Shown here: piece after piece, positions 93 through 48,989 of the stretch
Layout of the letters: the number at the start of each line of letters is the position of its first letter
How positions within the stretch are numbered: the stretch's first letter is position 1
IMG/VR virus record: IMGVR_UViG_3300032087_000658
Location: 1 to 53,415 of that record
Source of the DNA: a virus
Taxonomy: Duplodnaviria > Caudoviricetes
Length of the DNA stretch: 53,415 bases
Reading direction: 5' to 3' (one strand)
Notes under the pieces: model-generated
Databases searched by the model: none
Seen by the model: the letters and a program-made list of their open reading frames with translations, nothing else
What the model was told of the DNA's origin: nothing
Program-made: the position numbers and the translations under genes

Positions 93-3000
93 TTATGATG
101 CTTTATAAATTAAACACCCCAATAAATTACCACCACCTATATCATTATGCGTTGGTATTTGTATGCCTGTTTGTCCATTACTCTTATAAAGGGCAGCAAC
201 ATTAGCACTTGGACTAATTAAAGCATTGTCAGGTTTTGTAGACGAAGACCATTGATTACAATGTAGACCACTTATACTTCCATAATTTTCTGATGTACTA
301 GCTGCTGCAAAAGGTATTCCAGCTATAATTAAACTTTGTGTACCTGTAGCTCCATTTACATTAATATCAATATGAAACCATGCTGTCACTAAATCACCAA
401 CTTTAGTATATGTTCCAACTTGAACTGTATAGGTAGTAGAGCCATCACTTTGAAATGATGGAGTCCAAGTACCTTCTTCATAATCGTCAAGGTCAGAATC
501 CATTTTTATAGCACCTGAAAGGTACAAGTCTTTAAATTTAGCATTAGACCTACCTAAATCAACTACACCATTTGAAGCTGAATTAGTACTTACATTAAAA
601 GGTCTTATTTTATTTTCTGATTCTAAAAATTGTAAAGCAGCACCACCACTTCCTATAGTTAAATCTGTTCCTTCAGTACCAATACTTCCAACTTTTGTAG
701 TGTCTTTATAAAAAATAGCTATTTCACCATCATTAGAAAGTCTGTTAAATTCTGCTGGTGCTGAAGCTGATTTTGTTGCTCTAAATGTGTTATTAGAAGC
801 TAACTCAAAACCTGCTGTAGCTAAAGAACCACTTGAAGTCTTATTCACCAACAAGTTGCCTGAAGAATCAATACGCATGGCTTCTGATGCGTTAGTTGCA
901 AACCTCATATAATTTGCTGTATGTTCGTATTGAATAAATCCTCTATACGCATCATCTCCTGAAGTTCCATCTGCAAAATGAATATTACCTAAATGTGATG
1001 TTCCTGATGCTATCGTGATGCCTGTATGACCAGCAGTGGCTACAACTAAATCGTCTGCGTTTGCTTGATAACTTGAAGGACTATCAGTTCCAATTCCAAC
1101 AGCATTTCCTATGTAAGCATTATTTGAAAGCCAAAGATTAGTAAATTCTAAACTTGAATCTCCTAACTCAACATTATTGTTATAAGCACCAGCAGCATCA
1201 CAAGGTATGATTCTATTGTTATCTTTATCAAACTGTAATCCAAGACCATCAGCAGTAGCAAAAACCATTCTATCGCTATTTACCACACTTATAATACCGA
1301 CATCTGTACCACCATCTTTTATTTTTATATCCCCACCATCTGCATCAAGAATAATATCTCCACCAACATCTAGTGTTAAATCACCACTATCAGAAATAGT
1401 AGAACCATTAATAGTTATATCGTCTACTGTAAGTGTTGATAGAGTTCCAAGACTTGTAATATTAGGTTGAGCTGCTGTAGCTAGTGTGCCTGTAATGTCT
1501 CCTGATACTGATAATGTGCTATCTAATGTGGTTGCACCTGTCACATCAAACGTACCTGCAATATCAATGTTTGTATCTAGTTTTGCACTAGTAACAGCAT
1601 CATCTGCGATTTTTGCAGTAGTTATATTTGCATCAAGTATCTTAGATGTTGTTACGTTGCCATCTACAATCGTACTGGTTGTTACGCTATTTGAAGTCGG
1701 TGCGTTTACAGCAGTTTGTGACATGATAATCACTTCTATTGCTGTAGTACTTACTGGTGCTGTATCAAAAGCTAATGTTGTGCCACTTACTGTATAAGTA
1801 GATTTATTTTGATACACACCATCTACATAAACCTGTGTATTTAATTCACTGGTTGGATTGATGCTTAGTGTAAAGTCGGTTGTTGAACCATCACCTGTGA
1901 AGCTATCTTGTACTATGCTTGAACCTGCAACTGCTGATCTCACATGATAAATAACAATCTTTCTATTATTAACTGGTGCTGTGTCAAATGTAACTGTAGT
2001 ACCACTTGCAACAAAGGTATCTTTGTTTTGATAAACACCATCTATAAAACAGACTAGGTTATCTTCATTGACAATATTGGTGCTGACACTAAATGCTCTA
2101 GTAGAACCATCACCAGTATGATTACTGGTTTCCATAGCTGCTGCACCACCACCTGCAATCGCACCCCATGCACCATTTTGATAACCCTCAAATTCTGCAT
2201 TTGATGAGTTGTATCTAAACATTCCATTAACTGGTGAGCCATTTCTTTGTGCAGTTGTACCTGCTGGAACTTTTATAGAATCTGTACCACTTAATGTTAA
2301 GTTAGCAAATTCAGGACTGTTTGTTGTACCTACAGCTTGACCTATAGAAACTGCTGTACCTGAAACAGAAACTCCTGTACCTGCTGTTAGTGTTGTTATG
2401 TTTGCACTACCATCAAAACTTACACCATTAATTGTTCTAGCTGTTTCAAGGGCAGTCGCAGTAGCAGCGTTTCCTGAAGTGTCTTGTGTTCCTGCTATAT
2501 TAACCCCTGCAAGGTTGATATTAGCTGTACCATCAAAGGAAACCCCACCAATTGTACGAGCAGTAGCAAGAGCAGTAGCTGTATCGGCTAGTGCAATACT
2601 TATATTAGATGAGCCATCAAAACTTGTACCACCGATTGTTCTAGCAGTCTCTAAAGTAGTCGCTGTTGTCGCATTACCTGACAAAGCACCACTAAATGTT
2701 GTTGATGTTAAAACACCTGTTGATGGGTTGTAGTTTAGTCCTGTGTCTGTTTCTAAACCTTGTACACCAGTTGCACCATCTACAAAGGTTAGATAAACAG
2801 TTTCATTGGTTGTGTTGTTAGCAACTACATTTATTTCAGCAATATCAATATTTGCTGTTCCATCAAAAGATGTGCCACCGATATTTCTTGCTGTAGCTAA
2901 AGCTGTAGCTGTATCTGCTACAACACCTGATAAATTATTTATAAAGGTATTTGTTACTCTTGCATCAATAGCAGAGTTTGCTCTTGCATCTGTGTAATAC

Positions 3001-6000
3001 AGATTTGTGTTTTCAGGTACAACAGAAGTATCAAGTGTTGTTGATACAGCTTGATTAGAACCATTACCTAAGAATATTTTTCCGTTATTAAGATTTGGCG
3101 TAGCATTACTTCTTCCAGCACCACCTACTTTTATAGAACCAGCACTTGCGTGTGACCTTTGAACAATACCTATGTTTTGTATTAATGCTGATTCACCTGT
3201 TGGTGCTGTAGCTGTTAAACCACCAGCTGTTGTATTTATAAATAAAGTATCACCAGCACTAAAACTTGATGTATCTAATCCTGATAACGTACCAAAGGTT
3301 ACAACAATTACAGATGCATTAAGGTTAGCATCTGCTTTAGCCAATCCAAAGCTAGGCATTTTATTAGAATCATCTGCATCTGCTTTTGATACGATAGGTG
3401 TATTACCTGATATGCCTGATATGTAAACCGCATCACCTTTTGTTATTGCTTCACCAGCTTGTGCAGAAAATTCTGTAGCACCATTTATATTTCCAATAAT
3501 ATCTGCTGTTACTGTGTTAAAAGTTACATCACTTGTTGTAGATACAGCTTGTCCTATGGCAATAGATGGTGTTGCACCTTCTCCACTATTATTGGCTAAT
3601 GTTACGCCTGTTCCAGCTACAAGACTTTCTACATAGTCACCTGTAGTGTCTGTACCCAAAGCAACACTGTTAGCTTGAATAGTACTGGATATAGAAATAT
3701 TACCAGTACCATCAAATGATGCTGAACCTACTACATCTCCTGCAATCGCTATATCCCTTGCAGTTTCTAATGCTGTAGCAGTAGCAGCATTACCTGTTGT
3801 ATCTTGATTACCAGTTGTATTAACACCTGCTAAATTAATATTTGCTGAACCATCAAAAGAAACACCGCCTATGGTTCTTGCTGTTTCTAAGGTTGTAGCA
3901 GTAGATGCATTGCCTGTTAATGCACCAACAAAAGCTGTAGAGGTTATTGATGTAGCACCTGTTACCACACCTGCATCAATGATAATAGTTCCATCTAAAA
4001 CAATCTGCTGACCTGTGAGAGGATTAATATTTAGGTCTGTTCCAGCAGTACTAGATATTGTATTACCATTGATGTTGATGTTATCAACTTGTAAAGCAGT
4101 CAAAGTACCAAGACTTGTTATATTACCTTGTGCTGCTGTTTGGATTGTACCTGTTAAATCACCTGTGATATTTCCTTCAAAATTAGCTACTAAAGTTGCT
4201 GTTTGATATCCAGTTCCACTTATATTAACTGTGTTAGTTGGTTCAACTTCTAATAATTCAAAGAGTTTGTATTTGGCATCATTAGTATCTCTAAATAAAC
4301 CAGTAAACTGATTGGTAGAGCCTGATGCTCTGTATTGACCATAAAAACCAATATCTAAAGAATTAGCTGTATTATCTTTTGCTAATTTAATTAATGGGTC
4401 TGTAACTGCTAACGTCTGTGTATCAACTGTGGTGGTTGTTCCGTTTACAGTTAAATCACCTGAGATCGTTACATCATTTGGTAAACCTATAGTTATAGTT
4501 GCAGATTCACTTCCTGAACCTGACACTTCTATTTCATTAGCTGTGCCTGTTACTGTAGCAATATAATTACCAGTAGTGTCTGTTCCAAGAGCCACGCTGT
4601 TTGGTTGAATTGTTGTACTTAGGCTTATGTTACCTGTTCCGTCAAAACTAACGCCTGAAGCCACGACATCACCTGCTAGGGCAATTGTACGACCTGTTTC
4701 TAAAGCTGTAGCTGTTGAAGCATTTCCAGTAAGAGCAGCAGTTACTGTTCCAAACGTAACATCATCTGTAGTGCCTACTGCTTGACCGATTGATATAGTT
4801 GGAGTTGCTGTTTCACCACTATTGTTTGCTAATGCGATACCTGTTCCTGCAACTAAACTAGAAACATAATTACCAGTGGTATCTGTACCTAATGCAACTG
4901 AATTAGCTTGTATGGTTGTAGATATTGATATTCCTGCTGTGCCATCAAAATTAGCAGTACCAACAACATCACCTGATAGTGCTATGGCTCTTGCTGTCTC
5001 TAATGCTGTTGCTGTGCTTGAATTACCAACTAAAGCACCTGTTACCTGATTAAAGACAACGTCATCACCTGTACCTACACTTTGACCAATCGCAAAGGTT
5101 ACACCATTACCTGAAGCTGTACTTGTTACACCAGTACCACCGAGCAGTGATAATGTTTCAGAATCAAGGTCAATGGCTATAGTTGATGTACCATCTGTAA
5201 TATCTAGGTCTTGTGCAGTAACTTGACTATCTACGTAGGTTTTAATTGCTTTTGCTGATGCAATTGTTGTATCCGTAGCAGCAACACTTGTGAGATCAGT
5301 ATCCAATACACCTGATTTAAGATTATCTACCTCTATGTTAGAAACTGTGTTGTTATCTACATCAATTGTTTTGTTTGTTAAGGTTTGTGTACCAGTTAAA
5401 GTAGCTACTGTAGAATCAATAGCAAAAGTAACACCATTTCCTGATGCTGTGGAATCTATACCTGTTCCACCTAATAAAGATAAAGTCTCACTATCTAAGT
5501 CTATTGATATGTCTGTAGAGCCATCTGATACATCTAAATCCTGTGCTGTGACCTGTGAATCAACATAAGCCTTAATTGATTGTTGTGAAGCAACCTTTGT
5601 AGCTGAATTAGATGACATATCATCTTCATCTAAAAATGCACTACCTGATAAAGCTGTATTCAGTACTGGACTGTTTAAAACTGGACTTGTAAGAGTTTTG
5701 TTTGTAAGTGTAGCTGTTGTACCTGATATATAAGTATCAAGCCTTGTTACAGCAATTTGTTTCATAGTTCCGTTGTCATTTACTATGAATTGGTCTGCAT
5801 CAACAATTACTACAGAACTTGCACTGGTATCACCATCTAAAACATTTATTTCTGTGCCTGTTGTTGTGATTACAGTTGAACCATTAATTTTTGGTGATGT
5901 TAGAGTTTTATTAGTTAAAGTATCAGTGGTTGCACGACCAACAAGGGTGTCTGTTGATGTTGGTAGTGTTAATGTACCTGTATTACTTATCTGTGCAATT

Positions 6001-7325: not shown

Positions 7326-7694
7326 TTAAGTTGCTTTCTTTGTTGTTTTCTTTTTAGTAGTTTTCTTTTTTGCAGTAGTTTTTTTCTTTGGTGCTTCTCC
7401 ACCTTCCCATGCTTCGTTTACATCAGGAGTAGTAGGGTCATCACCAACTAATTGACCTTTATCATTTCTTGCTCTTTTGATTTCTTTAACTTCTGCTTGA
7501 ACATCTAATGTTTCTTGTACAGAATCTACTTTGATCTCTATTGCCCAACCATTTTCAACAAAAGTATCCATGATTTCTTCTTGCCACTTACCTGCTGATT
7601 CAACGATATCATCTGCTTTGTGCAAAATCATTTCAGTAGCTTGTTCATCTGCTATTGCTGGTTTAGGAACTAATATTTTAAATTTTCTTGCCAT
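7326..7694 (-). CDS. Hypothetical head-region protein with Lys-rich C-terminus
   Basis: ATG at 7694 after AGGTGAG; RARNDKGQLVGDDPTTPDVNEAW motif; KKKTT tail. Confidence 0.7.
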   Translation of the reverse strand: MARKFKILVPKPAIADEQATEMILHKADDIVESAGKWQEEIMDTFVENGWAIEIKVDSVQETLDVQAEVKEIKRARNDKGQLVGDDPTTPDVNEAWEGGEAPKKKTTAKKKTTKKKTTKKAT

Positions 7695-9446: not shown

Positions 9447-10379
9447 TTAAGATTTTAAGGTTAAAGTTAAGTTTTTTATGGCATCTACCAATTCAGCATT
9501 TGTATCAACATCACGTTGACCGAATGCATCAGTGACTGCTTTTGCAGCCATCTTTGCTTCTGAACGAGAAAGACTGAAGGCATCACGCATTCCATTTTCC
9601 CACTCTCTAATAGATATATCTTCACCTTTCACTGAACGAACAGTTGCCTGAGGGTTCATGGGAAAAGTTACTAACGATACTTCCATTAAATCTACTTCTT
9701 TGATAATACGTTTGTTACCACGTTTATCATATGAAACTTCTTTTGGGTTTACTCTAAAGCCTATGGATAGACCATCTAATGCACCCATTTTTAATAATTC
9801 GTATGCTTCTGCACCTGCTTGTGTTTTAAGTGCTAATCTACCCTTAACAACAAGACCATGTTCATCTTCTTTTATCTCATCAAAGACACCAATAGGCATA
9901 TCAGACTTGTGCTGATATAAAAGTTTTACGTTTTGTGGTTTTCTTCGTTTTAGGGATTTTAAAAAAGCACCTCTTTCAATAACATCATTACCTAAATCTT
10001 TGTTACCAAATACAGAACCATACCCTTCAAAAGTACCATAGTTCTTATCTTCATCTTCATCATGATAGGCTTTGATGCTTGACTTGATCTCTATGGATTC
10101 TTTTTCTTCTTCTTTAGAAGCTGTTTCATCAACAGTCTCTTCAGAATCAAGTTTGCTTTTGCCAAATTCTATAATGTAAGAGTCATCTGTTTCTTCTACT
10201 GCTCTTATATGTTTTTCATCATTCTCAATAGAATCTTCTTTGTTTGAATCGTACTGGCTAGTACAGACAGCTAATCGTTGGTTGGAATCAGTATATTCAC
10301 TCGCCATAGTCTTGTCTCCCATACATCTTTTTAAAAAACTTTGCCTAGACTCATTATTTTTAGGTTTAGGTATAGGCAT
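9447..10379 (-). CDS. HK97-family prohead protease with N-terminal extension
   Basis: FEGYGSVFGNKD, LLYQH, GLSIGF, EVSLVTFPMN motifs. Confidence 0.95.
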   Translation of the reverse strand: MPIPKPKNNESRQSFLKRCMGDKTMASEYTDSNQRLAVCTSQYDSNKEDSIENDEKHIRAVEETDDSYIIEFGKSKLDSEETVDETASKEEEKESIEIKSSIKAYHDEDEDKNYGTFEGYGSVFGNKDLGNDVIERGAFLKSLKRRKPQNVKLLYQHKSDMPIGVFDEIKEDEHGLVVKGRLALKTQAGAEAYELLKMGALDGLSIGFRVNPKEVSYDKRGNKRIIKEVDLMEVSLVTFPMNPQATVRSVKGEDISIREWENGMRDAFSLSRSEAKMAAKAVTDAFGQRDVDTNAELVDAIKNLTLTLKS

Positions 10380-11221: not shown

Positions 11222-13248
11222 TTGCTAGATAATGGGTGTCCCTCAGGAAATAAATCTGTATCGTGTTTACCACCTCTAAACTTACCTGATGATAATGCAC
11301 GTAAGAAACTGTTAACACGTGCATATGCCCATTGGTCAGGACCAGTAACATTAGGTCTTACTGATTGTGGGTTTGTTCTGTATGCACCAACACCTCTACG
11401 GAATACAGCTTCTAACATTCTTAATGTTGCTCTTTTAGTTTTGCTGTTTCCATGTTTTTCATTATGGTCTTCAACTTTTTTCTTTAATGCTTCTTTAACT
11501 TTGCCTGATAAAGCCTTAACATCTAAATCAAGGTCATCTATTTCTATATGTGTTTGTAGTGCAAACTCTTTATCTTCTTCAGTGATAATTTGTTGTCTTT
11601 TCTTTTTAGACCAACTAAATCCTGCATCACCACCCCACAAAGCCCATGCAATTCTTCCTGCACTTGGATAACCTTTTTCACCTTGACTAAATCCTTCTGC
11701 TCTTTTGTCTACCTCATGTCTGCTAAAAAAACTATACATTCTTTTAATAGTAGATATAGATAAGTTTTCTTTTGCTATGATTGAGTTTGCTCTAGCTACA
11801 CCAACAGCAGTACCACCCCTGTTGTGTTCTTTACGCCATGCTAAACCACGTTTTGCTTCTGTAACCATTCCGTCTGTAGGTACAGTGTTAATATCAGATA
11901 GTGCTTTTTCTTCTTGTAATAAAAACTCTATTTCCTTATCAACTTCTTCTTCATCATAATCTTCTAAATCTTCTTCATTGACTGGGTTTTCAGGTTTAGC
12001 TACACCATCATCACCAAGTGGGAATAATGTACCTGATATATATAAATCATCTGCACCTTGCACTGGTTCTAAACCAATTATTGCTCTAGCTTCATTACGA
12101 GTCATTATCCCTTCACGTACAGCACTTGTAACGTTTTCATATATCTTTCTACGTCTTTCTGATAATGCTGGTATTGAATCTACGTCAAATTCTAGTGATA
12201 ACCTTTCATCAAACATAGGTATAAGCCATTCATTGAGATCACTGGCTATTTTTCTTAAATGTGGAATGATTGTTTCTTCATATAGAGCAAGTCTTGCTTC
12301 TGCTACATTTGAATAGGTTTGTGAATCAGGTACACCAACTAATTGACTTGGTACACCAAAACATAAAGCTATATCTGTAGCACTCATATTTTTTAAATTT
12401 AGAAAATCCATATCTTTTGGCGATAAACCCATCTCTTTCCAATCAAAGTCACCTTCTAACAACATAGGTCTACCAGCATTACCAGCACCACTAAATCTAT
12501 TGTTTAAATCTGTGAGTAACTGTTGTCTTTGTGATTCTGACAGGTTAACAGCAAATCCTGCATCATCTTGTGGTTTAAATATTACAGCACCACTAGGTCT
12601 TGCACCATTTTGTAATAAGTTAACATTGTGTTTACTTGACATATTAAACTGGTCTATTTCAACAGCAGCAGCACTCATGGGACTTAATCCATAATAATCA
12701 TCTAACGGATTCCATAACTTCACATGTTTTAATTCACTAAAACCATTATCTTGGTCTACTAAAAATGTTTGATGTACCTTACCATTAATTATGTATTCGT
12801 ACTTTTCAGGTATTGGATTGCCACCACCTTTAATATTAATTCTGTCAGGTCTTAATTGATGTAATTCTTTTGGTTGTCCTAACTCACTTCCTACTTTAAG
12901 AATGTATGCATTACCACTAAGAAGCACATAACCAAATAGGGAATTAAAAAACTCTGAGTAGGATTGTAAAGGATTGGGTCTGTTAAGTAGGTCAATAAGT
13001 GGGTGTTGTTCAATTATTTGGTCTCCTGCTTTTATAATGAATGGTACAGCACTTGCACCTTTTGATATTTCATTAACACATCTGTATACAATTGCATTTT
13101 TTAAATAACCCTCTTTTGCTAAGTCCTGATATTTATAAGTTTTTGCTTCTTCAGTACCAACGCCAAAGTAACCCATCATATTTGAGTTTTTTTGTTCTTG
13201 TACAGGTTGTATATTAAACAGTCTTTGTAAAAATGTTTGTTGTGCCAT
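11218..13248 (-). CDS. HK97-family portal protein with about 230-aa C-terminal extension
   Basis: LLNRPNP, GNAY, YGLSP, NGARPSG, FGVP, TYSN, MTRNEAR motifs. Confidence 0.95.
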   Translation of the reverse strand: MAQQTFLQRLFNIQPVQEQKNSNMMGYFGVGTEEAKTYKYQDLAKEGYLKNAIVYRCVNEISKGASAVPFIIKAGDQIIEQHPLIDLLNRPNPLQSYSEFFNSLFGYVLLSGNAYILKVGSELGQPKELHQLRPDRINIKGGGNPIPEKYEYIINGKVHQTFLVDQDNGFSELKHVKLWNPLDDYYGLSPMSAAAVEIDQFNMSSKHNVNLLQNGARPSGAVIFKPQDDAGFAVNLSESQRQQLLTDLNNRFSGAGNAGRPMLLEGDFDWKEMGLSPKDMDFLNLKNMSATDIALCFGVPSQLVGVPDSQTYSNVAEARLALYEETIIPHLRKIASDLNEWLIPMFDERLSLEFDVDSIPALSERRRKIYENVTSAVREGIMTRNEARAIIGLEPVQGADDLYISGTLFPLGDDGVAKPENPVNEEDLEDYDEEEVDKEIEFLLQEEKALSDINTVPTDGMVTEAKRGLAWRKEHNRGGTAVGVARANSIIAKENLSISTIKRMYSFFSRHEVDKRAEGFSQGEKGYPSAGRIAWALWGGDAGFSWSKKKRQQIITEEDKEFALQTHIEIDDLDLDVKALSGKVKEALKKKVEDHNEKHGNSKTKRATLRMLEAVFRRGVGAYRTNPQSVRPNVTGPDQWAYARVNSFLRALSSGKFRGGKHDTDLFPEGHPLSSK

Positions 13249-27805: not shown

Positions 27806-28033
27806 TTATGTGCTGCTCTTTTTTTCAGAAGAATACATTATATTTAACCCAGCTAAAGTGCATAGACGATTTTTTTCATCTAGACCTTTTTCTGTGAGAT
27901 CATAATTTTGTCCATTAACTTTGATGTAACCATCTGTAATTAATGCAGTCAATAAATCACTAGGTATATCATCACCAAACATAACTGTTAATATGCCACC
28001 TAATCTTTTAGTTTGTGTTTTACTTAGTGCCAT
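27806..28033 (-). CDS. Small hypothetical protein, possibly winged helix
   Basis: LITDGYI...YDLTEKG; coupled to the endolysin stop. Confidence 0.65.
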   Translation of the reverse strand: MALSKTQTKRLGGILTVMFGDDIPSDLLTALITDGYIKVNGQNYDLTEKGLDEKNRLCTLAGLNIMYSSEKKSST

Positions 28034-35907: not shown

Positions 35908-38900
35908 TATATTTCTGAAAATTTGTAAAAACCTAGTTGTACATTGCTCAATTGTCTATTGTTACCATCGCCTTGTGCTAAAATATAAACACTTAAAGTT
36001 CTACTTGTACCACTTATTTTTCTAATCATAAAATCTTTTTGCACCATTTTATAAGTTGAGTCAAATCTATCTACACCTGACCATGTTTGTGCTTGACCTG
36101 AATTATACTGAGCATAACCCTGATTTGCTATTGGTAAATTTAATGCAAATAACTGGTCTACACCATATGCAAAATCATCTCTTAATTCAAAACTAAAACC
36201 TGTTCCATAAGTACCATCACCTGCAACAATAGATAGAGTTTTAACCTGTCCACTTCCTCCAAAAACTCTGCAAAAAATATGATATATACCTGTAGCTGTT
36301 CCAATATCTGCAACTTTTTTCAAACGCATTGTATTGCTCTGCCAAGAACCTATAGTAGAACCTGAAACTGTTTGTGCATCAAAATCAAGAGCTAAATCAG
36401 TAACATTAATTCTATCAGCAGTAATAGTGTTTGAAGCAATTTGTGTAGCTGTTATTGTGCCTGTGGCTATTTCTGTAGCTGTTACCTGTCCAGCAGCAAT
36501 TTTTGCTGTAGTTATTGCATCAGCATTGATTTTATCAGTAGTAATAGCATTAGATATAATTTTATCAGCAGTAATTGCGTTAGAAGCTATTTCTGTAGCA
36601 GTAATTGTTCCTGCTGTAATTTTAGCAGCAGTAACAGCATTGGCAGCAAGTTCATCAGTAGCAATTGCACCAGCAGCAATATTTGAAGCTGTGATTGTAT
36701 CTGTAGCTATTTGTGTTGAAGTGATAGTACCAGCAGCGATCTCACTAGCTGTTATTTGATTTGCTGCAATTTTTGCAGTGGTAATAGCATTAGCAGCAAT
36801 CTTATCTGTAGTAATAGCATCAGCAATAATCTTATTAGCTGTAACTGCATTTGTGGCTATGGTATCGGCAGTTATTGCACCTGCATTAATCTTTGCAGTC
36901 GTAATAGCGTTAGCAATAATTTTATCTGATGTGATTGCATTTGTTTGAATGTTATCAGCAACAATTGCGTTTGCAGCAACTTTATCAGCAGTCACAGCAT
37001 CAGCTGCTATTTTTACAGCAGTAATGGCGTTACTTGCAATAGTGTCAGCTGTAACAGCACCTGCGTTTATTTTTGCAGTCGTAATTGCATTTGCAGTTAT
37101 CTTTGCGGTTGTTATTGCATTATCACTTATTTTTGTACTAGTTATAGCATTAGCTGCAAGATTTGCAGTCTGAACAGCATTATCTGCAAGTTTTGCGTTT
37201 GTGACTGCATCTGTACCTAGTTTTGTATTTGTAATAGCACCTGTGGCAATTTTTGCTTCACTTATAGCATTTGCAACTATCTGTGCTGTATTTACTGCGT
37301 TATCAGCTATTTTGGCATTGGTAACAGCATCAACACCCAATTTTGCTTCTACGATAGCACCAGCAGCAATAACATCACCTTGTATAGCATCTACTGCTAT
37401 TTTTGCATTAGTAACTGCTTCAGATGCTAGTTTTACAGTTGTAATTGCACCATCTACTATTTCTCCTGCATCTACGTTTGTAAAACTACCTGTAGCTACA
37501 GAAGTAAATGCTGAATGTACGTCTGAATGATTTACAGACCTTGCCCAAAAATAATACGTTGTACCAGCAGTTAAACCATCTTGTGTTCCAAACAAAGTAC
37601 TAGTCTTTTTACCATTTTGCCCATAAATCGTTTCTACTAAATAAGTGTCATCTGTTGGTGTTGTATTTGATGTTCTTCTATAAATCTTAGTTGCCTTGAG
37701 ATCAGCACTAGTTGAATTTATCCAAGATACAACTATGTTAAATGCTTGTCCTGTTGATGCAGTTAAACTTGTTGGTACTGCTGGTGCATCTGTTGGTGCT
37801 GCTATTGTTATATTAACAACACTGGTATAAGCACTAGCTACACCATTTACGTCAATATGTCGTGCTTTTACGTTATAAGTTTTTCCAACTACAACATTAG
37901 GGAGAAGGGCTACAGCAACACCTTTTCCTACAGTAAAGTCAGATGTATATGCACCATCTGTACTTAGCTTATACGCCACCTCTGTAAGTGTGACCTTATC
38001 GCTAGAGTTGTTTGTCCACGTAGCTTTTATATCTACTTTGGTTGTAACACCATCTTTGTTTGTTTGTTGTGCTAGTGCTAAGTTTGATGGTGCTGTTACT
38101 GCATATGTACCAGTACCGACATCACTACCTTCTGATTGACCAGTTGTATAATCACTTGTAGCAAAATTAAATACACTAGATGCGACTTCTTTTAGTTCCA
38201 ACTGTGTAGCCATAACAGGAATATCACCATCTGTTATAACTTGCATATTAGTGGATATTACTTCAAAGACTTTTTGACTGTAACCCATTCTTTCGTTGGT
38301 TAAATATACCCAATCGTTAGGTTGTAGTCGCATATATTTTAAAGTTACTAAACAAGATATTGATGTGGTCTGTCTTTGACTTTTTAATGCTATTCTGCCT
38401 AATCTTTGTGCCATTGTATCTGTAACTGTAAATGGCAATTGTGATTCCATTTGTTTTACATAATTAGCAGTAGATTCGCCACTAGGTGTATCTGCATTAA
38501 GCATTGTAGTATCTTGGTGAACTTCAGCATCAGCTGCTACATATCCTTGTGTAGAGTCAACATATAAAGGTTTAACACTATTGAATAAATTACCTGAACT
38601 TGGGTTTGTTTGTATTTGTACATCATTTAATAAATCATCATCAGTAATAATTAATGATGGTGTTTGTGATGCACCTGCAAAAACATTAAATTTACCATTT
38701 ACATAAGAAACTTTACCTGCCATAGAACTAAGTATTGATTCTATAATTCCATTACCATTTGCACTAAAGTTAGTAAATCCGTTTGACGTGTATCTTTTTT
38801 CTGTTGTAGAACCATCTGCTAAAGTTACATTTTGTTCACAGATATTAGCAGCACTTGCAAAACCACCTGCATTTGTTGTGTCATTAATCTCATCATTAGT

Positions 38901-40722: not shown

Positions 40723-41595
40723 TTAAATTACCTCAACACATGAAAAACTTATACCATAGTTAGAAATTCTATCTGCTGACCAACTTACTTCATTACTAAT
40801 TAATCTAAAGTTGCCTTTAGGATTTGTAAAAACTACATAATGCCCACTAGCTAAATCAGACCTAAGTTTTGGCTCTGTTTTAACAGAATAAAAATCATTA
40901 CCTGCATCACTAGTTGCAGTTGCATCTTCTACTACCATAACTAATTGTGTTGGTGTTCCTGAAGAACTAGCTGCTGATTGTATACTTAGATAGTCTCCTT
41001 TCTTTATAGTGCCACTCGCACCTGTTGTAGAAGCTCTAAGGCATAAACCTGTAGCACCCTTTACATTAGTTCTAACCTTACAACTTGCAGTATTACTTTC
41101 AGTAGTAAAATTACCATCTGTTACTATCACTGTATTACTTGTTACTGTAGTTACTTTAAAAGTTCCATTGTTTTCTTCATTTGTTGCACCAGTAATAACT
41201 ATAAAATCTCCTACCTTAGTATTTGCAAAAGTTGATGCACTTGCTGTTAATGTGCCATTAGATGCAAATGATAAAGTTACATTAGTGTTATTAGTTCTTA
41301 GTTCACTAGTAAGGTGTGCGGTTGAATAAGTACCTTGATTAGATAAAGCATCAGGGTCAGCAAATTTAAAAGTATTTACTGGTCCGTTGAGATCAAGTAA
41401 AAAAGACTGCCAGTTTGATGCCACATCTCTACGCATGGGTGGTAAAGAAACTTCAGCAGTCCAATAAACCCCATCAAATTCTTGTGTTTTTGTTTTACCT
41501 GTAAAAGGGGATACAGTTGTTCCTACAGTTCTAACTAGTGAAAAATTACTTCTAACAAAGTTAGGAGTTGTAGGCATTGTTATTAATTTAGCCAC
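40723..41595 (-). CDS. Distal tail protein (Dit-like) with internal insertion
   Basis: Follows TMP; SPFTG, WTAEVSLPPM, FLLDLNG, EPKLR, NPKGNFRL; start re-called at GTG 41595. Confidence 0.75.
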   Translation of the reverse strand: MAKLITMPTTPNFVRSNFSLVRTVGTTVSPFTGKTKTQEFDGVYWTAEVSLPPMRRDVASNWQSFLLDLNGPVNTFKFADPDALSNQGTYSTAHLTSELRTNNTNVTLSFASNGTLTASASTFANTKVGDFIVITGATNEENNGTFKVTTVTSNTVIVTDGNFTTESNTASCKVRTNVKGATGLCLRASTTGASGTIKKGDYLSIQSAASSSGTPTQLVMVVEDATATSDAGNDFYSVKTEPKLRSDLASGHYVVFTNPKGNFRLISNEVSWSADRISNYGISFSCVEVI

Positions 41596-43474
41596 CTTGT
41601 AACATTCTCCTATAATTTCCACCACGCATTGCAGCTTCAGCAACAGCACCTTTTGTTACATCTGCAATCTGTGGCATCATTTTCATAACTTCTGCTCTAA
41701 CTGTTGGTACAACACCAGTAGCAAAATTAATTGATTGGTTTATAACAGTAGTACCACCACCGCCCAAAGCGTTTTTGCTATTCATGTTGTTCATTATGTT
41801 TCCATTACTATGTGGAACAAAAATTTCAGGACCACGTTCACCAACTAACATAGGTTCACCGCCATAAGCCGAACCACCACCAGCTGATTTTCTTAATGTA
41901 GGCAAAGCATCACTTGTACCTGTTAAACCAAATACTGAATTAAGAATTTCATTTACTACCGCCATCTGTAAAAATGTAGATATTATTTGACTAACAATAT
42001 TTTTTGCAAAGTTTTTAAAACTTTCTAAAGCATTTTCACCTGCCATTAATGAATTTACAAAATCTGTTGTAAAAGCATTTGATGCATTAATTATTGTTTG
42101 CTGCATTTCATCTGAAAAAGTAATAGTTTCTTCTAATTCACCTTTAAGTTTTTCTAAGTGTGTTACAACAGCTTGTAGTTCACTTTCATCTGTTATACCC
42201 AAGAAAGCCATAATACCTTTCTTGTCTTTTGCATCAGGTGTATTTATTAAACCATTTATATAATCTATTTGGTCTTGAAGTTTTTGTTGTTCAGGTATTG
42301 TGTCTTCTAATAATTTTTTAAATGTTGATTGAAAATCTATTAATCCTTCAATGTTACCTGCTTCAAATTTTGTAGTTTTAACTGTTTTCTTTTTCGTTTC
42401 TTCAATGCTTTGTAATATTTCTAATCTTAATGTTTCTTTATTTGTTATATCTTGTTGCAACTTTAATAAGTCGCTCATATGTGATAAAGCCAATTGTTCT
42501 TTAAATGGCGGATTTGCTGCCATGAATTTTGCACGTTCTTTATCTGCATCAATTTGGGCTTTTAACAAATCAGCCTGTTTCTGTGGGTCTGTTTCCGTAA
42601 TCCCAACATCTGCAACAGTAATATCACCTCTCAATCTTCTAACTGTTTTACCTATAGCGTTTGCCATATCAGTTAGTCTATCAGCCATATTTTTAAGAAA
42701 ATCACCTAAACCACTTTTAAATACCTCATCTCCTAACTGTTTAAAAGCAATAACCATGTTAGATGTTTTTGTACTAAGGTTATCCATTTTAGATTCCATA
42801 GCACCACCAAACTTTTCATTCAGACCTTCTGTTAAGGCTTTTACCATTTCAGCAGCACCTTCAGCAGTTTTACCAAATTTAGCTATATCATCTTTTGTAA
42901 GGTTTAATTTATCACCAAGAATACCAAGAACATCTATACCTCTATCGGAGATCATGTTTAATTCTTCTAGACCCATGCCACCTGAAGCTGACCTTTGTAC
43001 CATTCTTATAAGTGCTTCAAATGTTCCTAATTGGTCTACAGATACAGATGCAGTATCAGCAAAAGTCTGTAACATATCCATACTTGGTTCAATACCTGCT
43101 GATTTAAGTGCAATAAATGCTTTTGTTGCATCTTCTATTTGGAATGGCGTTGTTTGTGCAAAAGTAAATACTTTTTGCATAGCTGCATCACCAGCTTCCA
43201 TGCTACCAAATACTTGGTCTAAAGAATCTTTTAAATCTTCAAATTGTGCTCCAACACCTGCTATAGCTTTCATTGGTAAAACTATTGCTGCAATACCTGC
43301 TGCTGCTGCTAATGCTGGTCCTTTAATTTTTGTAAGACTAGCACCCATAGTACCAAAAGCTGCACCACCTGCTGCACCAGTTACTTTGATTTTTCCTTGT
43401 ATTTGTTTTAAATCTTTTTGTAACTGTTTTGTATCAGCTTTGATTTGAATTATTAAATCATCTATCTTAGCCAT
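41588..43474 (-). CDS. Tape measure protein
   Basis: Helical, Ala/Gln/Lys-rich; FAQTTPF; C-terminal LVGERGPEIFVP. Confidence 0.93.
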   Translation of the reverse strand: MAKIDDLIIQIKADTKQLQKDLKQIQGKIKVTGAAGGAAFGTMGASLTKIKGPALAAAAGIAAIVLPMKAIAGVGAQFEDLKDSLDQVFGSMEAGDAAMQKVFTFAQTTPFQIEDATKAFIALKSAGIEPSMDMLQTFADTASVSVDQLGTFEALIRMVQRSASGGMGLEELNMISDRGIDVLGILGDKLNLTKDDIAKFGKTAEGAAEMVKALTEGLNEKFGGAMESKMDNLSTKTSNMVIAFKQLGDEVFKSGLGDFLKNMADRLTDMANAIGKTVRRLRGDITVADVGITETDPQKQADLLKAQIDADKERAKFMAANPPFKEQLALSHMSDLLKLQQDITNKETLRLEILQSIEETKKKTVKTTKFEAGNIEGLIDFQSTFKKLLEDTIPEQQKLQDQIDYINGLINTPDAKDKKGIMAFLGITDESELQAVVTHLEKLKGELEETITFSDEMQQTIINASNAFTTDFVNSLMAGENALESFKNFAKNIVSQIISTFLQMAVVNEILNSVFGLTGTSDALPTLRKSAGGGSAYGGEPMLVGERGPEIFVPHSNGNIMNNMNSKNALGGGGTTVINQSINFATGVVPTVRAEVMKMMPQIADVTKGAVAEAAMRGGNYRRMLQGG

Positions 43475-43679: not shown

Positions 43680-44023
43680 GCTACTTGTTCTTTTTTTTTA
43701 TCTTCCTCGTCTGAGTCGTTATCAGTTAATGTTGCAGCTAAGAGTTTAGCTACTTCGGTTGATGCTACCACAATTCCTACACTAGATATGATCTCACCTA
43801 TTTTTTTATCGTCAAAATCGTTGCCACCACCTCTAAGTGCATGACGTAATACAACGAGTAGTGTACGAATACGCACTTTAGCTTCAGCAATGGCAGTAGC
43901 TAACTCTAAAATGCCTTTATCTAATTCGTCTTCTATTCTTACTAATGCATCTATTGTTAATCTGCATTTATAAGTTTCTTTACCTAACGTAAGTGGTATT
44001 TCACCCTTCAGTGGATTCGCCAT
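43676..44023 (-). CDS. Tail assembly chaperone, gpG-like
   Basis: MANPLKGE...LTIDALVRIE; start re-called at 44023; A9 run near the 3' end. Confidence 0.85.
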   Translation of the reverse strand: MANPLKGEIPLTLGKETYKCRLTIDALVRIEDELDKGILELATAIAEAKVRIRTLLVVLRHALRGGGNDFDDKKIGEIISSVGIVVASTEVAKLLAATLTDNDSDEEDKKKEQVA

Positions 44024-45110: not shown

Positions 45111-45538
45111 TTCAATACACCTTTTTTAAACATACGCTCTATTTTTCTTCTATTTTTTTCTAATGCTGGTTGCATGAATGGTCTTTCAGTCATTTGTGTT
45201 GTACCAAACTCTAGTGCCTTAGAATATGGTGCTGCTGATATTATTTGCCCAATAACAGTACCATTTGCTTTTACATCTACATTCATAGTTATTTGACTTA
45301 CTAAAAATCCTGTGTCACTTGCAGGTGGTTGATTAGGTGCTGATGCTCTATGACTTCTTCTTGGTTCATATTTTTGATATAACTTTCCAGTACCACCTTT
45401 CATAATGCTTTCTTTTGCAGTGTTTTGTACCATCATAGTTCCACGAGTTACATATTCTTTGACTTTGTTATCCTGCAATTTTTTATTTAATTTTTTATTA
45501 AATTCTTTTAAATTTGTTATCTTGAGATCAACACTCAT
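45107..45538 (-). CDS. HK97 gp10-like neck protein
   Basis: ASAPNQPPASDTG, LEFGT, RPFMQPA. Confidence 0.9.
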   Translation of the reverse strand: MSVDLKITNLKEFNKKLNKKLQDNKVKEYVTRGTMMVQNTAKESIMKGGTGKLYQKYEPRRSHRASAPNQPPASDTGFLVSQITMNVDVKANGTVIGQIISAAPYSKALEFGTTQMTERPFMQPALEKNRRKIERMFKKGVLK

Positions 45539-45864: not shown

Positions 45865-46521
45865 TTATCCCAGTGCCATTAAAGATGATGAACCTAATCC
45901 TCTGTGTACAACATAAGGTGCATACAAACTTCTTAACATAGGTGGATAAGGTAACTTAGCATCATACATATCTCCTCTGTGTTCATAAAGATATGCTATG
46001 TGTTGTAGTATTCCTAATCTTAGTGGTTCAGGTATGTTGTATTGTGATGTGTAACCTGCTACGTATTTAACTTCTATAGCGTTTGCTACTCTTAATGCAG
46101 TTGGAAAAGTAGCACCAGTTCTTAAAACTACTCTTGCTGGTTCTCTAGCGTTATCTACATAATAATCTGTACTAGCAAAGGTAGTTGCTGTATCTGAATC
46201 ATCATAAGTCTTTATATGTGTAACAGAAGCTACTGGTGATCTCGGTAAAACTACATAATTTTTATAGTAATTTAAGTATGGACCAGTACGTACACCTTCC
46301 CATAAAGGGTCACTTATATCTTCAAATGCATCAATAAATAATGTTAGAGTTTGTGTCATTAATGCTCTACCAGTATGTTCCTCACAAAACCTTCTAGCTG
46401 TTTCTATGAAAGGTCTTATGATTCTTTCATCAGTAGAATCATCAACTCGTAAATATTCTTTGACTTCTTGTAATGTGACTGGCTCTTGGGTTGGCTCTAC
46501 GCTTACTTTTAATCCTGCCAT
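45865..46521 (-). CDS. Head-tail connector (HK97 gp6-like)
   Basis: EPVTLQEVKEYLRVD, CEEHTGRALMTQ, YVAGY, LYEHRGD; start re-called at 46521. Confidence 0.92.
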   Translation of the reverse strand: MAGLKVSVEPTQEPVTLQEVKEYLRVDDSTDERIIRPFIETARRFCEEHTGRALMTQTLTLFIDAFEDISDPLWEGVRTGPYLNYYKNYVVLPRSPVASVTHIKTYDDSDTATTFASTDYYVDNAREPARVVLRTGATFPTALRVANAIEVKYVAGYTSQYNIPEPLRLGILQHIAYLYEHRGDMYDAKLPYPPMLRSLYAPYVVHRGLGSSSLMALG

Positions 46522-46721
46522 TAGACAAATGCTCCTATGACTTGTGAAGCTATGATTAAAGCATATAAACCCCAAATCTGTTGTTCTATACGAATAAATC
46601 GTTTAGAACCTGCTTCCATACGTCTTTCTATGTTTTCGTATCGTAAAGCACAAATTTGTTCGTGCAATTCCAACTTTGTGAGATCAGTTGGATTTTTTAT
46701 CTCCACTTTCGGCATCTTCAT
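46521..46721 (-). CDS. Small coiled-coil protein with C-terminal TM
   Basis: HEQICALRY...RIEQQIWGLYALII. Confidence 0.6.
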   Translation of the reverse strand: MKMPKVEIKNPTDLTKLELHEQICALRYENIERRMEAGSKRFIRIEQQIWGLYALIIASQVIGAFV

Positions 46722-47024: not shown

Positions 47025-48989
47025 TCATTCATTTTCTAATGTTTCTATTCTTGATTTTAAATCTTCTATAATTACTTGTTGTTCTTGTATAGCTTTTATT
47101 AAGTAGGGTGTAAGTTTTCCGTAATCAACACCAAAAGGTTCTTCGGTTACATCATCTCCACCTTCTATAACAACATTAGGAATTACATCTTTTAATTCTT
47201 GTGCAATCATACCAATATCATGTTTACTACTACTTTTCCAATCAAATTCTCTTACTTTTACATTTTTAATTACATCTAATTGAGAAGAAGCATCAACAAT
47301 ATTTTCTTTAAGTCTTTCATCAGAAGTTGTATTAAAAAGTACTGAACTTGCACCATTTTGTGATACTGAACCAATATTTCCACCACCATCATAAAAAGCT
47401 ATAAATTTTCCTTGTGAATCAGTATCAACACTAAATGTACATCTTAATATGTGGTTACTTGTAGCAACCGAAACATCAGGGTCAATAAAATTGACTACAC
47501 CACCACTTATACTATTACCTGCAACTTGTAAAAAACTGCCATAGCTACTACCATCAAAACCATTAGTCATACGCCCACTACTATCAATACGCCATCTTTC
47601 TGTTGTGCCACCAGCATAAAATCTTAAATCAGCACTATTAAATGCTTGTCCTGTTGAAGCTATACCAGCACCTTCACTAGAAGTACCAGCAGTAAAACTA
47701 ATTTTTGCCCCATCATTTACTGATGTTCCTGCATGATTTAGGTTTAATGCTTTAAGAACTCCTGAACCACCACTACCTGCTCTTTTTATTGAAACTTCTC
47801 CCACACTATCAATACGCATTCTTTCTGTGCCGTTAGTATGAACCTGAAAGTCGTTTGTACCATTTCTTAATCTTGTAAGACTACTAGTATTAGCAGATTG
47901 CATCGTAATATCACAATTAGAATTACCAGTAACAAAGTTTGCTGATACAGGACTTGCTGAAGATGTGGTCTGTGTGATTGTTCCATTAGAATCAATACGC
48001 ATTCTTTCTGTTACTGTTGGGTCTCCAGTTGTTGCTGCTGAATTAGAAAATATTACATTACCTTCAACAAACTGCATTGCAACACCTGCTGTAGCATTAG
48101 AGCCATCTCTAACCCTAAAATTACCTGCTGAATTGTAAAAAAGATTATCTAATAGTGCTGTTTGCCCAGTGCTTGAACCAGTATCATTAGCTAAAAGTGT
48201 TCCTCTAGCACCAATTTGTAATACATCATGCCCTGCAAATCTATTAGTTTGTGGAACTACACCTATACCAAAGGCACCTGAAGAATCAACTGTAACCCTA
48301 GATTCAGGAGTGCTACCTGTCCATATTTGAACAGAGGTGTCACCACCTAAAATTAAATTACCACCAGCAACACCTTGTCCATCAGCTCTTATGTGATATA
48401 AACCATTAGCATCCATGTAATGTTGACCATACAAAGTAGTAGAATTATATCTAAGTGCTAGTGTATTATTTGAGCCATTCCCTGTTCCAATAGTTCCATG
48501 TTGAATTTCTAATGAGTTTGCTGGATTTGTTAATCCAATTCCAACTCTATTATTTGTAGCATCAACAACTAAAGTAGAAGTATCAACAGTCAAGCCATCA
48601 GCAACAACTGTACCTGTTACACTAACCCCTGCACTGCTTGTCGCTAGTTTTACAGCATTATCGTGATAAAGAGATACTGCACCATCAGCTGTACAAACTA
48701 TGCTTTCCTCGTTGAGTTTTGCTTGTATGTGTACTGAACCATTGGTATCAGCTAAATAGATATTACCTGTGGAATTGCTGATATAAGAATTAGAACCATC
48801 GTGGTAGATCTCAAGATCTCCACCAGTACCTATCTTTATCTTATCGTTGTCTCCCATAATCATATGGGTAGCTAGTGTTAGTTCACCTGTGACACCTAAA
48901 GTTCCTGAGATCGCTATATTAGTATCTAACTTAGCACTGGTTACTGCTCCGTCTACTATTAACTCTGTTGGTACTAATGTATATGCCAT
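47025..48989 (-). CDS. Fibre protein with C-terminal intramolecular chaperone (peptidase S74)
   Basis: ERMRIDS repeats; TSDERLKENI, GMIAQEL, VDYGKL, KAIQEQQ. Confidence 0.9.
   Translation of the reverse strand: MAYTLVPTELIVDGAVTSAKLDTNIAISGTLGVTGELTLATHMIMGDNDKIKIGTGGDLEIYHDGSNSYISNSTGNIYLADTNGSVHIQAKLNEESIVCTADGAVSLYHDNAVKLATSSAGVSVTGTVVADGLTVDTSTLVVDATNNRVGIGLTNPANSLEIQHGTIGTGNGSNNTLALRYNSTTLYGQHYMDANGLYHIRADGQGVAGGNLILGGDTSVQIWTGSTPESRVTVDSSGAFGIGVVPQTNRFAGHDVLQIGARGTLLANDTGSSTGQTALLDNLFYNSAGNFRVRDGSNATAGVAMQFVEGNVIFSNSAATTGDPTVTERMRIDSNGTITQTTSSASPVSANFVTGNSNCDITMQSANTSSLTRLRNGTNDFQVHTNGTERMRIDSVGEVSIKRAGSGGSGVLKALNLNHAGTSVNDGAKISFTAGTSSEGAGIASTGQAFNSADLRFYAGGTTERWRIDSSGRMTNGFDGSSYGSFLQVAGNSISGGVVNFIDPDVSVATSNHILRCTFSVDTDSQGKFIAFYDGGGNIGSVSQNGASSVLFNTTSDERLKENIVDASSQLDVIKNVKVREFDWKSSSKHDIGMIAQELKDVIPNVVIEGGDDVTEEPFGVDYGKLTPYLIKAIQEQQVIIEDLKSRIETLENE

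Follow-up and report, generated by a model that had tools for sequence, protein, structure and literature searches.

The window considered here is the whole 53,415-nucleotide sequence of IMG/VR virus record IMGVR_UViG_3300032087_000658, a tailed phage genome (Duplodnaviria; Caudoviricetes) from which the tetranucleotide GATC has been purged except within the asymmetric hexamer GAGATC, or its complement GATCTC. The retained hexamer is not merely spared: it is favoured by selection, being around threefold enriched, as well as conserved between relatives, usually followed by A and evenly spaced along the chromosome, and the same state recurs in related phages. The interpretation that we prefer, to which we assign a probability of roughly 0.4, is a composite one, in which a host nuclease attacking GATC, a modification of one strand of GAGATC(A), a cost incurred by pairs of sites and a benefit conferred by each site would act together.

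GATC is retained in a single context

Exact counting confirmed the context-restricted purge: the window contains 40 GATC sites, 35 of which lie within the hexamer (19 reading GAGATC and 16 GATCTC on the plus strand). An earlier note on this sequence had estimated about 39 and 34 by eye, against some 160 GATC sites expected from base composition; the computed expectation is 167, whilst a maximal-order Markov model gives 159 and 1000 within-gene synonymous-codon shuffles gave 117.5 +/- 7.7, with a minimum of 93. The hexamer, counted on both strands, is expected 19.0 times from base composition and was present 12.4 +/- 2.9 times in the codon shuffles (maximum 24), such that the observed number represents a 1.8- to 2.8-fold enrichment over these nulls, in keeping with the twofold excess previously suggested. 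The proportion of GATC found in context, 87.5%, compares with a shuffle mean of 10.4% and a maximum of 19%.

The 33 hexamers within open reading frames (ORFs) use all three frames, and read GAGATC in 15 cases and GATCTC in 18 on the coding strand; the other two (16721 and 46680) are outside genes. As sites occur in every frame and in both gene orientations, codon or dipeptide usage is not the explanation. Chance, or such usage, can be regarded as practically eliminated as a cause: none of the 1000 codon-preserving shuffles, a check proposed in the earlier note, reached either the GATC depletion or the hexamer count, and the pattern recurs in independent contigs around 80% identical to each other.

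Of the 36 GATC sites between positions 1 and 50,900, only one is out of context (TTGATCAT at 33120), the same exception that had been picked out by eye. These sites are listed below, along with the equivalent sequences in related phages (loci numbered from L001, described in a later section) where these are of note.

1936..1941, minus strand, GAGATC site (GATCTC on the plus strand)
4462..4467, plus strand, GAGATC site
5292..5297, plus strand, GAGATC site
7533..7538, minus strand, GAGATC site; also in the L202 record, AACTTC or GACTTC in most relatives
10086..10091, minus strand, GAGATC site; GATCTC common to L010 and L054, most relatives having GATTTC
12235..12240, plus strand, GAGATC site in the portal gene; AAGATC/CAGATC/TAGATC in unpurged relatives, NAGGTC/NAAATC in purged ones
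14280..14285, plus strand, GAGATC site; same GATC core in the L202 record, with the GA flank on the opposite side (GTGATCTC vs GAGATCTT)
15505..15510, minus strand, GAGATC site; GATCTT in L057 and L059
16721..16726, minus strand, intergenic GAGATC site
17338..17343, minus strand, GAGATC site
18477..18482, minus strand, GAGATC site; GATCTT or GATCTG in L057 and L059
19050..19055, plus strand, GAGATC site; GAAACC in the closest relative, L001
20610..20615, plus strand, GAGATC site
21196..21201, minus strand, GAGATC site; GATCTG or GATCTA in L057 and L059
21893..21898, plus strand, GAGATC site
22565..22570, minus strand, GAGATC site
24171..24176, plus strand, GAGATC site
24856..24861, plus strand, GAGATC site
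27896..27901, plus strand, GAGATC site
29958..29963, plus strand, GAGATC site
30553..30558, plus strand, GAGATC site; common to L202
31325..31330, minus strand, GAGATC site; common to L202 and L182
32677..32682, plus strand, GAGATC site
33120..33123, out-of-context GATC (TTGATCAT), the sole one before the mosaic junction
34732..34737, minus strand, GAGATC site coding Glu-Ile; GAAATT/GAAATC in purged and unpurged relatives, GAGATC in L178, L202 and L182
36738..36743, minus strand, GAGATC site
37698..37703, plus strand, GAGATC site
41389..41394, plus strand, GAGATC site; GATCTC in L178, L202 and L210, GACTTA in purged relatives
42948..42953, plus strand, GAGATC site
43790..43795, minus strand, GAGATC site
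45524..45529, plus strand, GAGATC site
46238..46243, minus strand, GAGATC site
46680..46685, plus strand, intergenic GAGATC site
48807..48812, minus strand, GAGATC site, first in an atypical cluster of three
48815..48820, minus strand, GAGATC site, 8 bp from site 48807
48907..48912, plus strand, GAGATC site, 92 bp from site 48815

Other avoided words and a mosaic junction

The four further out-of-context sites (50937, 51102, 52169 and 53333) all fall in the last 2.6 kb of the window, as do its sole TCGA (52295) and one of its two GGCC sites (51994). Similarity to another phage group (L253, L256-L260 and L262; 75-84% nucleotide identity), the members of which carry TCGA, CCGG and ordinary GATC, begins at 50,798-50,810 and in the case of L257 continues to the end of the window.

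50805..53415, mosaic module shared with phages not avoiding TCGA, CCGG or GATC

Since this final stretch is akin to phages lacking the avoidance, it is a recombined module, in which the signature of a different restriction environment persists; up to the junction at around 50,800, 35 of 36 GATC sites are in context. The module comprises the N-terminal third of a 924 aa tail protein and two genes beyond.

Other palindromes are scarce in the window as well, with no CCGG or GCGC, two GGCC and one TCGA. Across the family (the window and loci L001-L080) the avoided words are TCGA, CCGG, CCWGG and GGCC, with TCGA missing from 79, and CCGG from 73, of the 80 loci found through the portal gene; GCNNGC, GCGC, ACGT, GTAC, ACGGT, GCTGG and GATC are avoided lineage by lineage. 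Because so many other palindromes are absent across the family, a restriction-driven origin of the GATC purge is well supported, and the strong selection against GATC that the earlier note proposed therefore stands as avoidance of this kind. This mosaic of avoidance is unusually rich for one phage family. In L067-L070, for instance, ACGT is totally lost and GTAC nearly so, whilst GCTGG/CCAGC is present 79 times in the window (30 expected), 0-1 times in L010, L136, L076 and L077, and at likewise low levels in many other relatives, which seem to avoid a 5-mer that the window lineage does not.

GATC depletion in enterobacteriophages was reportedly ascribed by McClelland in 1985, and by Deschavanne and Radman in 1991, to counterselection of the Dam/MutH type, in which undermethylated phage DNA is killed by mismatch repair rather than by restriction. 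Such a cause is very improbable here, given that five other palindromes have been purged too and that it offers no reason for the GAGATCA rule described below; furthermore, the nearest genomic relatives of the portal are alphaproteobacterial, to our knowledge a class without Dam/MutH.

GATC states among related phages

Of at least 564 relatives in IMG/VR matched by the portal, 80 were obtained, at 69-91% identity, and the following states were distinguished among them.

No GATC: L002, L003, L007, L029, L043, L044, L047, L055 and L066
GAGATC-only (in context/total): L001 9/9, L054 4/4, L077 9/10, L076 9/12 and L010 13/18
Near-normal GATC: most portal loci
GATC-enriched: L067-L070 and L079

The excess in the last of these is 1.6- to 2.5-fold, and L068 favours TAGATCC, TGGATCT and AGGATCT. 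Scans with tail proteins found many purged contigs along with further GAGATC-only contigs (L178 5/5, L182 7/7, L202 13/13, L210 4/4 and L186 6/7), which are mutually around 80% identical. The 39 kb L202 record, which L180 and L231 duplicate, provides another near-complete genome in the GAGATC-only state: all 29 GATC sites in the 38.6 kb examined are in context, and the whole record has 30 GAGATC. In 14 pooled GAGATC-type sequences, 130 of 141 GATC sites are in context, or 104 of 114 when only distinct sites are considered (L054 being counted with three sites, as its fourth lies within 10 bases of the contig end); of the few out-of-context sites in relatives, GCGATC(A) is a recurrent one.

A portal tree of 79 rows, from a quick IQ-TREE run that excluded L054, L076 and L077 for portal coverage below 90%, unites the window with L001 (support 96), and a branch with support of 99 parts this clade from the L010/L136 group, which is nested with the purged L002, L055 and L007 (support 88). 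This placement implies that the GAGATC state requires at least two changes and neighbours the fully purged state, within the limits that mosaicism sets on such a conclusion.

Flanking bases and the seventh position

The base following GAGATC was A at 106, G at 10, T at 10 and C at none of 126 non-redundant oriented sites, compared with 50% A, 23% T, 23% C and 5% G in 48 unpurged family loci. GGATC, which is contained in GAGATCC, is absent from GAGATC-type genomes, against 81 copies expected from unpurged relatives, and C is scarce at positions -1 and +4 too. A wider or bipartite motif was rejected, as only +1 is strongly informative; -1, +4 and a few others reach P values of around 1e-4 among 80 tested.

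Alignments exhibit a signature of flank conversion around intact cores. GATCTC in the window aligns with GATCTT, GATCTG or GATCTA in the unpurged L057 and L059, and the AAGATC, CAGATC or TAGATC of unpurged relatives appears as GAGATC in the window, L001 and L010, and as NAGGTC or NAAATC in purged relatives. The core at 14280 is GTGATCTC in the window but appears as GAGATCTT in the L202 record, hence one protective flank would suffice, on either side. Between L010 and L136, which are 95.5% identical, nine of the 13 L010 sites are kept and the other four differ by a flank base only, with the GATC core intact; using L077 as the outgroup, L136 is the derived sequence and, having acquired out-of-context GATC as well, resembles a lineage freed from the constraint. 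A general preference of the family for a GA flank on GATC was not evident (31 against 26 expected in GATC-enriched relatives, and 53 against 66 in unpurged ones).

The hexamer is favoured as well as exempt

GAGATC-type sequences have 0.62-0.91 hexamers per kb, compared with around 0.23 per kb in codon shuffles and around 0.28 per kb in unpurged relatives (leaving out GATC-enriched loci). The dipeptide Glu-Ile is informative in this regard, as GAG-ATC alone of its codon pairs contains GATC. This pair is used seven times in the window (1.1 expected), eight times in GAGATC-type relatives (1.7 expected) and never in purged relatives; the odds ratio for GAG with ATC within such pairs is about 11 in the window and 4 in GAGATC-type relatives, but 1.3 in 44 unpurged loci. 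With no unsafe GATC variant to be rescued, the over-use of GAG-ATC indicates that the hexamer is favoured, not merely spared. Sites have also arisen de novo: GAAATC or GAAATT, the form in both purged and unpurged relatives, has become GAGATC in GAGATC-type lineages (window 34732; L136 19838), as has GAGATA at L136 15244, and GATTTC has become GATCTC at window 10086. The observed gains require some benefit per site.

Once present, the hexamer is conserved. The window and the L202 record, 80.9% identical, have 15 of 25 aligned sites in common (33.7% for control hexamers), and the window and L001 seven of eight (45% for control hexamers). Purged relatives, on the other hand, have 2.0-2.75 substitutions per hexamer at the window's sites against a background of 0.6-1.2, in eight of eight comparisons (P from 0.00015 to 0.04); L173, at 90% identity overall, also diverges faster at these sites. 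There was no significant tendency for lost sites to be compensated nearby, with five of ten unshared window sites having an L202-record site within 250 bp, against about 3.2 expected. Hence the exemption of the hexamer suggested in the earlier note is real but incomplete as a description, since the word is also favoured, extends to GAGATCA and, as detailed below, occurs at sites that repel one another.

Sites are evenly spaced

The gaps between sites are more even than under random placement, as judged by their coefficient of variation (CV), in all of the following sequences except L010; several of them have sites in common, namely the window and L001, L010 and L136, and L077 and L076.

Window: gap CV 0.62, P=0.0014
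L001: gap CV 0.35, P=0.003
L136: gap CV 0.38, P=0.0008
L076: gap CV 0.41, P=0.012
L077: gap CV 0.44, P=0.02
L010: gap CV 0.62, P=0.07
L202 record: gap CV 0.39, none of 20,000 random placements as even

For 285 window hexamers with 28-42 copies the mean CV was 1.01 +/- 0.16; GAGATC had the third-lowest value, the lowest being that of AGATCA, a word found at these very sites. Seven non-redundant sets, when pooled, gave 78 gaps with a mean of 1475 bp and a CV of 0.53, only three of which were shorter than 440 bp (20.1 expected, P=2.8e-7) and one longer than 4 kb (5.2 expected). With a minimum distance of 440 bp imposed, the residual evenness fell short of significance in the window (P=0.10) and was of marginal significance in L136 (P=0.02); as this minimum removes most of the evenness, repulsion between neighbours is the main component. 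Short gaps would be missing because close pairs carry a cost, as from a two-site nuclease. The three sites at 48807-48912 lie within 106 bp of one another at the 5' end of a tail-fibre gene (47025-48989); L173 and L185 have no GATC at the matching positions.

A simpler account would be a host GATC nuclease that is intrinsically poor on GAGATCA, and less so on GCGATCA, and that needs two sites in cis, with no modification involved and the excess of hexamers a by-product of flank conversion. We consider this rather unlikely, despite its agreement with the flank-conversion signatures at aligned sites, with the site repulsion and the proportion of the excess evenness attributable to a 440-bp minimum, with the recurrence of GCGATC(A) among the few exceptions, and with the statement in a section of PMC12707154 that isolated sites are refractory to multi-site enzymes. 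It does not explain the 5- to 6-fold over-use of GAG-ATC in Glu-Ile, where there is nothing unsafe to rescue, nor the sites gained de novo from GAAATC, GAGATA or GATTTC, nor the nesting of L010 and L136 among fully purged lineages, which would have left nothing to rescue. Nor are we aware of any GATC enzyme that a flanking dinucleotide excludes almost absolutely.

The IbrA/ParB module and the GAGATC state

Between the primase-helicase and small terminase genes of the window lies a module that also includes a 96 aa ORF, with divergent GGACT and Amidoligase_2 proteins.

16913..17728, minus strand, IbrB-like ParB_N protein
18005..19138, minus strand, IbrA-like PP-loop (PAPS_reduct) protein
19135..19797, minus strand, class-I S-adenosylmethionine methyltransferase, without a (D/N/S)PP(Y/F) motif

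An IbrA/IbrB-like pair is represented by PF01507 and PF02195 in the window, and by PF01507 with PF11922, along with a pair of PF02195 proteins, in L077; the IbrA of the window gave no DUF3440 match. Two versions of the module, around 30% identical, occupy the same slot. Version A (window, L001 and L202 record) consists of the methyltransferase, IbrA, the small ORF and ParB; version B (L010, L136 and L076/L077) has ParB, a weakly cupin-like protein, IbrA with DUF3440 and another ParB, with no methyltransferase. The Amidoligase_2 and GGACT (gamma-glutamyl cyclotransferase-like) pair adjoins both versions (window 15169-16703; L077 5569-7132) and is also found in more distant IbrA-bearing contigs (e.g. 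L086, L087 and L092).

The methyltransferase has generic Methyltransf_11/25/31 matches only in Pfam; it resembles small-molecule methyltransferases, with UbiE/BioC-like matches that are far below cut-offs. IbrA scores 18.5 bits (window) and 24.5 bits (L077) against the DndC model TIGR03183, the cut-off of which is 290.4, and its solved relatives are limited to weak CysD/CysH matches; each version has four or five cysteines of its own and none common to both, save one beside the PP-loop (T in L035). DndA/D/E or SspA/B/C partners are not among the module's neighbours (the class-I methyltransferase, 96 aa ORF, ParB_N, GGACT and Amidoligase_2). No literature joining IbrA, IbrB, phage and DNA modification was found, and PMC10853773 makes no mention of IbrA, DUF3440 or GATC.

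The earlier note surmised that the hexamer might mark the target of this module, and GAGATCA could indeed be its working signal, such as a loading or target site from which a modification spreads over around 1 kb, with an even array of sites kept in the sole context surviving GATC restriction. A version of the module is carried by every GAGATC-type lineage in which the region is visible, namely the window, L001, the L202 record, L010/L136 and L076/L077, which argues for some link. IbrA was not found in the purged L003 (81% complete) and L185 (50% complete) records, and the syntenic regions of the purged L055 and L066 also lack the module. ParB-family proteins load at short sites and then spread, a mode of action that the even, orientation-blind spacing and the positive selection would suit. 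Yet the comparison of relatives with and without the module, as the earlier note advised, found that its presence fails to predict the state. L047, with IbrA and ParB 84% and 85% identical to those of the GAGATC-only L077, has no GATC in 12.8 kb. L081, L057 and L059, with IbrA and ParB 81-82% identical to the window's and a methyltransferase 35-37% identical, are unpurged and have only three or four GAGATC in 13.5-21 kb; L071/L135 likewise carry the module, are unpurged and have no hexamer excess. A set of 80 contigs bearing IbrA, drawn from many phage groups, includes about 28 that are depleted in GATC without the GAGATC exemption, many of these having no GATC at all, and none of the set is GAGATC-only save the family member L136, which is intermediate. 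With the two GAGATC-only groups having modules only around 30% identical, one of them lacking the methyltransferase, and with a methyltransferase devoid of a DNA amino-methyltransferase motif and an IbrA scoring far below the DndC cut-off, the surmised link is not supported, nor do these comparisons support the module being sufficient for the state. Counted by module, the GAGATC-type lineages amount to only two independent ones, and a signalling role of the module is on balance unlikely. The methyltransferase allele does track state within version A (around 80% identity between the window, L001 and L202, against 37-39% to L057); as this is a single lineage, it proves nothing.

IbrA was also not found in the L173, L055, L177 and L186 records (22-43% complete, L186 itself being GAGATC-type), the mosaic L192 record (84% complete) or the unpurged L184 record (85% complete). 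The L192 record, which is shared with L295, was rejected as a GAGATC-type genome without the module, being a mosaic of a purged tail module and unpurged head and replication regions: its first 4.7 kb (tail module) have no GATC against 13 expected, and its head and replication genes (12-32 kb) have 59 against 76 expected, in ordinary contexts.

That no phage gene tracks the state, and that a common rule is found with very different modules, could be explained by a conserved host methyltransferase marking GAGATCD on one strand in all strains, with GATC restriction present in some strains only; progeny from any strain would then be protected at GAGATCD alone. The interleaving of states on the portal tree is also as host-strain-dependent regimes would give. 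This account predicts neutral sites, not ones that are enriched, conserved and evenly spaced, and the GAGATC-type groups differ in GCTGG (79 copies against 30 expected in the window, as noted above, and 0-1 in L010, L136, L076 and L077); we judge it unlikely.

Genome context and other features

The window is a complete single-contig assembly of 34% G+C with a coding share of around 95%, according to our own call of 63 genes, which include those for a major head protein, protease, portal, large terminase and tape measure, as well as a Mu-F-like protein, the primase-helicase and a lysozyme. The 22 public runs listed as containing this genome are seawater or marine metagenomes. No near-identical record was found in the annotated phage collection, and among isolates the closest major head protein is that of a Rhizobium phage (49%). 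None of the 40 differences listed, out of 1246 between metagenome contigs and the window, fell inside the GAGATC hexamers of 1-20 kb, an uninformative sample; metagenome sets X7 and X8 have identical figures and are probably one data set.

Following the head genes is a CDS for a 2271 aa protein (93-6908), ruled out as the carrier of a DNA methyltransferase domain by having DUF4183 as its sole match. Metagenome contigs aligned to this gene have many internal joints, which suggests repeats or strain variation. A cargo-like block at 29838-34757 contains the following genes.

29838-31616, CHASE2 and adenylate/guanylate cyclase protein
31692-32195, T4 endonuclease V-like pyrimidine-dimer glycosylase
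32188-33285, FecR-domain protein
33885-34757, CsgG-family protein

Homologues of the glycosylase are present in 11 family loci; none of the relatives compared has a counterpart of the cyclase, FecR-domain or CsgG gene. The E. coli Chi octamer, GCTGGTGG, is present in seven copies, all on the minus strand (3220, 7952, 41877, 45791, 47608, 48361 and 50027). A Chi-like signal was rejected, as all seven are in frame 0 and encode Ala-Gly-Gly, and are thus explained by codon usage in glycine-rich structural proteins.

Interpretation and comparison with known systems

Under the composite reading that we prefer, the lineage would live under a host nuclease attacking GATC, one among many restriction specificities shaping the family, and it has lost every GATC save those in the asymmetric 5'-GAGATC(A)-3'. 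These would be refractory through a sequence-specific enzyme, either the phage's or a conserved one of the host, that reads the asymmetric 7-mer and modifies one strand of the embedded GATC. The sites are not neutral remnants: selection generates and maintains sites at about one per 1.3-1.5 kb and eliminates pairs closer than around 0.45 kb, which would accord with a residual cost arising when two weak sites cooperate, as with a two-site nuclease, being balanced against the benefit of each isolated site. What the sequences show directly is the purge, its context and seventh-base rules, the flank-conversion signature, and the enrichment, conservation and spacing of the hexamer together with its recurrence in relatives; a nuclease, a DNA modification, a cost of paired sites and the kind of benefit gained are inferred. 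A one-strand modification overlapping GATC would be the simplest factor able to read an asymmetric 7-mer.

Several observations weigh against this reading. Its components do not suffice singly: protective modification alone predicts neutral sites rather than enrichment or spacing, and a two-site nuclease by itself should allow isolated GATC to persist whatever its flanks, contrary to observation. Close pairs break the spacing both in the window (48807/48815/48907) and in L010 (5225/5240, about 17 bp apart). No canonical DNA methyltransferase was detected among 40 window proteins scanned against Pfam (39 of the 63 called genes and one overlapping ORF; the other 24 are mostly tail and small genes, five having been searched in PHROGs only), and the (D/N/S)PP(Y/F) motif is absent from the module's methyltransferase in the window, L001, L202, L057 and L059. 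In the regions covered, no gene is exclusive to GAGATC-type phages. As to the host, the nearest genomic relatives of the portal are in alphaproteobacterial genomes and metagenome-assembled genomes, at 41-50% identity.

The near-total loss of GATC, TCGA, CCGG, GCGC and GGCC, the lineage-specific patterns among close relatives and the foreign sites in a recently recombined module all resemble restriction-site avoidance in virulent phages. Such avoidance is normally all-or-none for each site, however, whereas here one asymmetric extension escapes it and is, in addition, enriched, conserved and regularly spaced. A literature search outside supplements and most subscription journals found no account of palindrome avoidance with a spaced exemption tied to context; in the portions bearing on this subject, PMC12679398 treats a GATC artefact and PMC13515534 a Type I test plasmid.

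Two-site enzymes (Type IIE/IIF and Type III; EcoRII sites in T3/T7 DNA) similarly allow sites to persist if far apart. That multi-site enzymes leave isolated sites uncut is stated in part of PMC12707154, which cites work by Kruger in 1988. The likeness ends there, since any isolated copy is tolerated by such enzymes, whereas out-of-context GATC has been purged here (one in 50.8 kb), and the word that is tolerated occurs in excess. In protection by an overlapping methyltransferase (Dam overlap, or one-strand modification of the Type IIS, Type III or BREX type), the protected unit is an asymmetric 6-7 bp word containing the palindrome, as GAGATC(A) would be here. Passages of PMC12707154 describe asymmetric GATC-containing modification motifs, such as the BREX motif GATCAG, the blocking of GATC enzymes by 6mA or 5mC, and hemimethylated GATC as a poor substrate for DpnI. 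BREX itself differs in modifying the A at position 5 of a 6-mer, according to the motif table of that paper, a position at which both GAGATC and GATCTC have T.

Dnd/Ssp phosphorothioation is brought to mind by the adjacency of a PAPS_reduct-family PP-loop protein and a ParB_N protein in the window (cf. DndC/SspD and the ParB-like DndB), and GATC is a phosphorothioate motif in some marine bacteria. Nevertheless IbrA is far below the DndC cut-off, close homologues of the module are present in phages without the pattern, and no DndA, DndD or DndE homologues were seen among the 40 scanned proteins. Chi-like octamers are also short, asymmetric, enriched words spread along a genome. They differ in their orientation bias, of which GAGATC shows none (19 against 16 on the plus strand, and 15 against 18 by gene), its regularity being orientation-blind; that the word contains the purged palindrome points to a connection with the GATC system.

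A more speculative reading, which we hold only as a tentative possibility, is that GAGATCA forms a selected, evenly spaced array of epigenetic marks, each a GATC modified on one strand and immune to the nuclease, and protecting, or serving as the entry point for, around 1 kb of surrounding DNA. Such marks could halt a translocating defence nuclease by mimicking the self-marks of the host, or could load a ParB-like clamp carrying the PP-loop enzyme. If true, this would be a counter-defence written in the sequence of the genome with a periodicity of kilobases, and it would evolve as sites turn over within a constraint on their spacing.

Site avoidance is usually read as the plain loss of a word; this abundant marine phage family exhibits a third state between purged and unpurged, in which one asymmetric extension of a palindrome is retained and newly generated as well as conserved and spaced out. 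If modification underlies the pattern, as in the composite reading, the motif would give the specificity of an uncharacterised DNA-modifying enzyme, with the comparison of GAGATCA and other GATC sites providing a ready assay; should the spacing stem from a nuclease that needs two sites or translocates, the minimum distance of about 0.45 kb and the typical one of about 1.4 kb would be a genomic read-out of the natural reach of that enzyme. The family, with relatives 80-96% identical in different states, offers matched natural controls, and its mosaic genomes contain modules that retain the avoidance signature of previous hosts.

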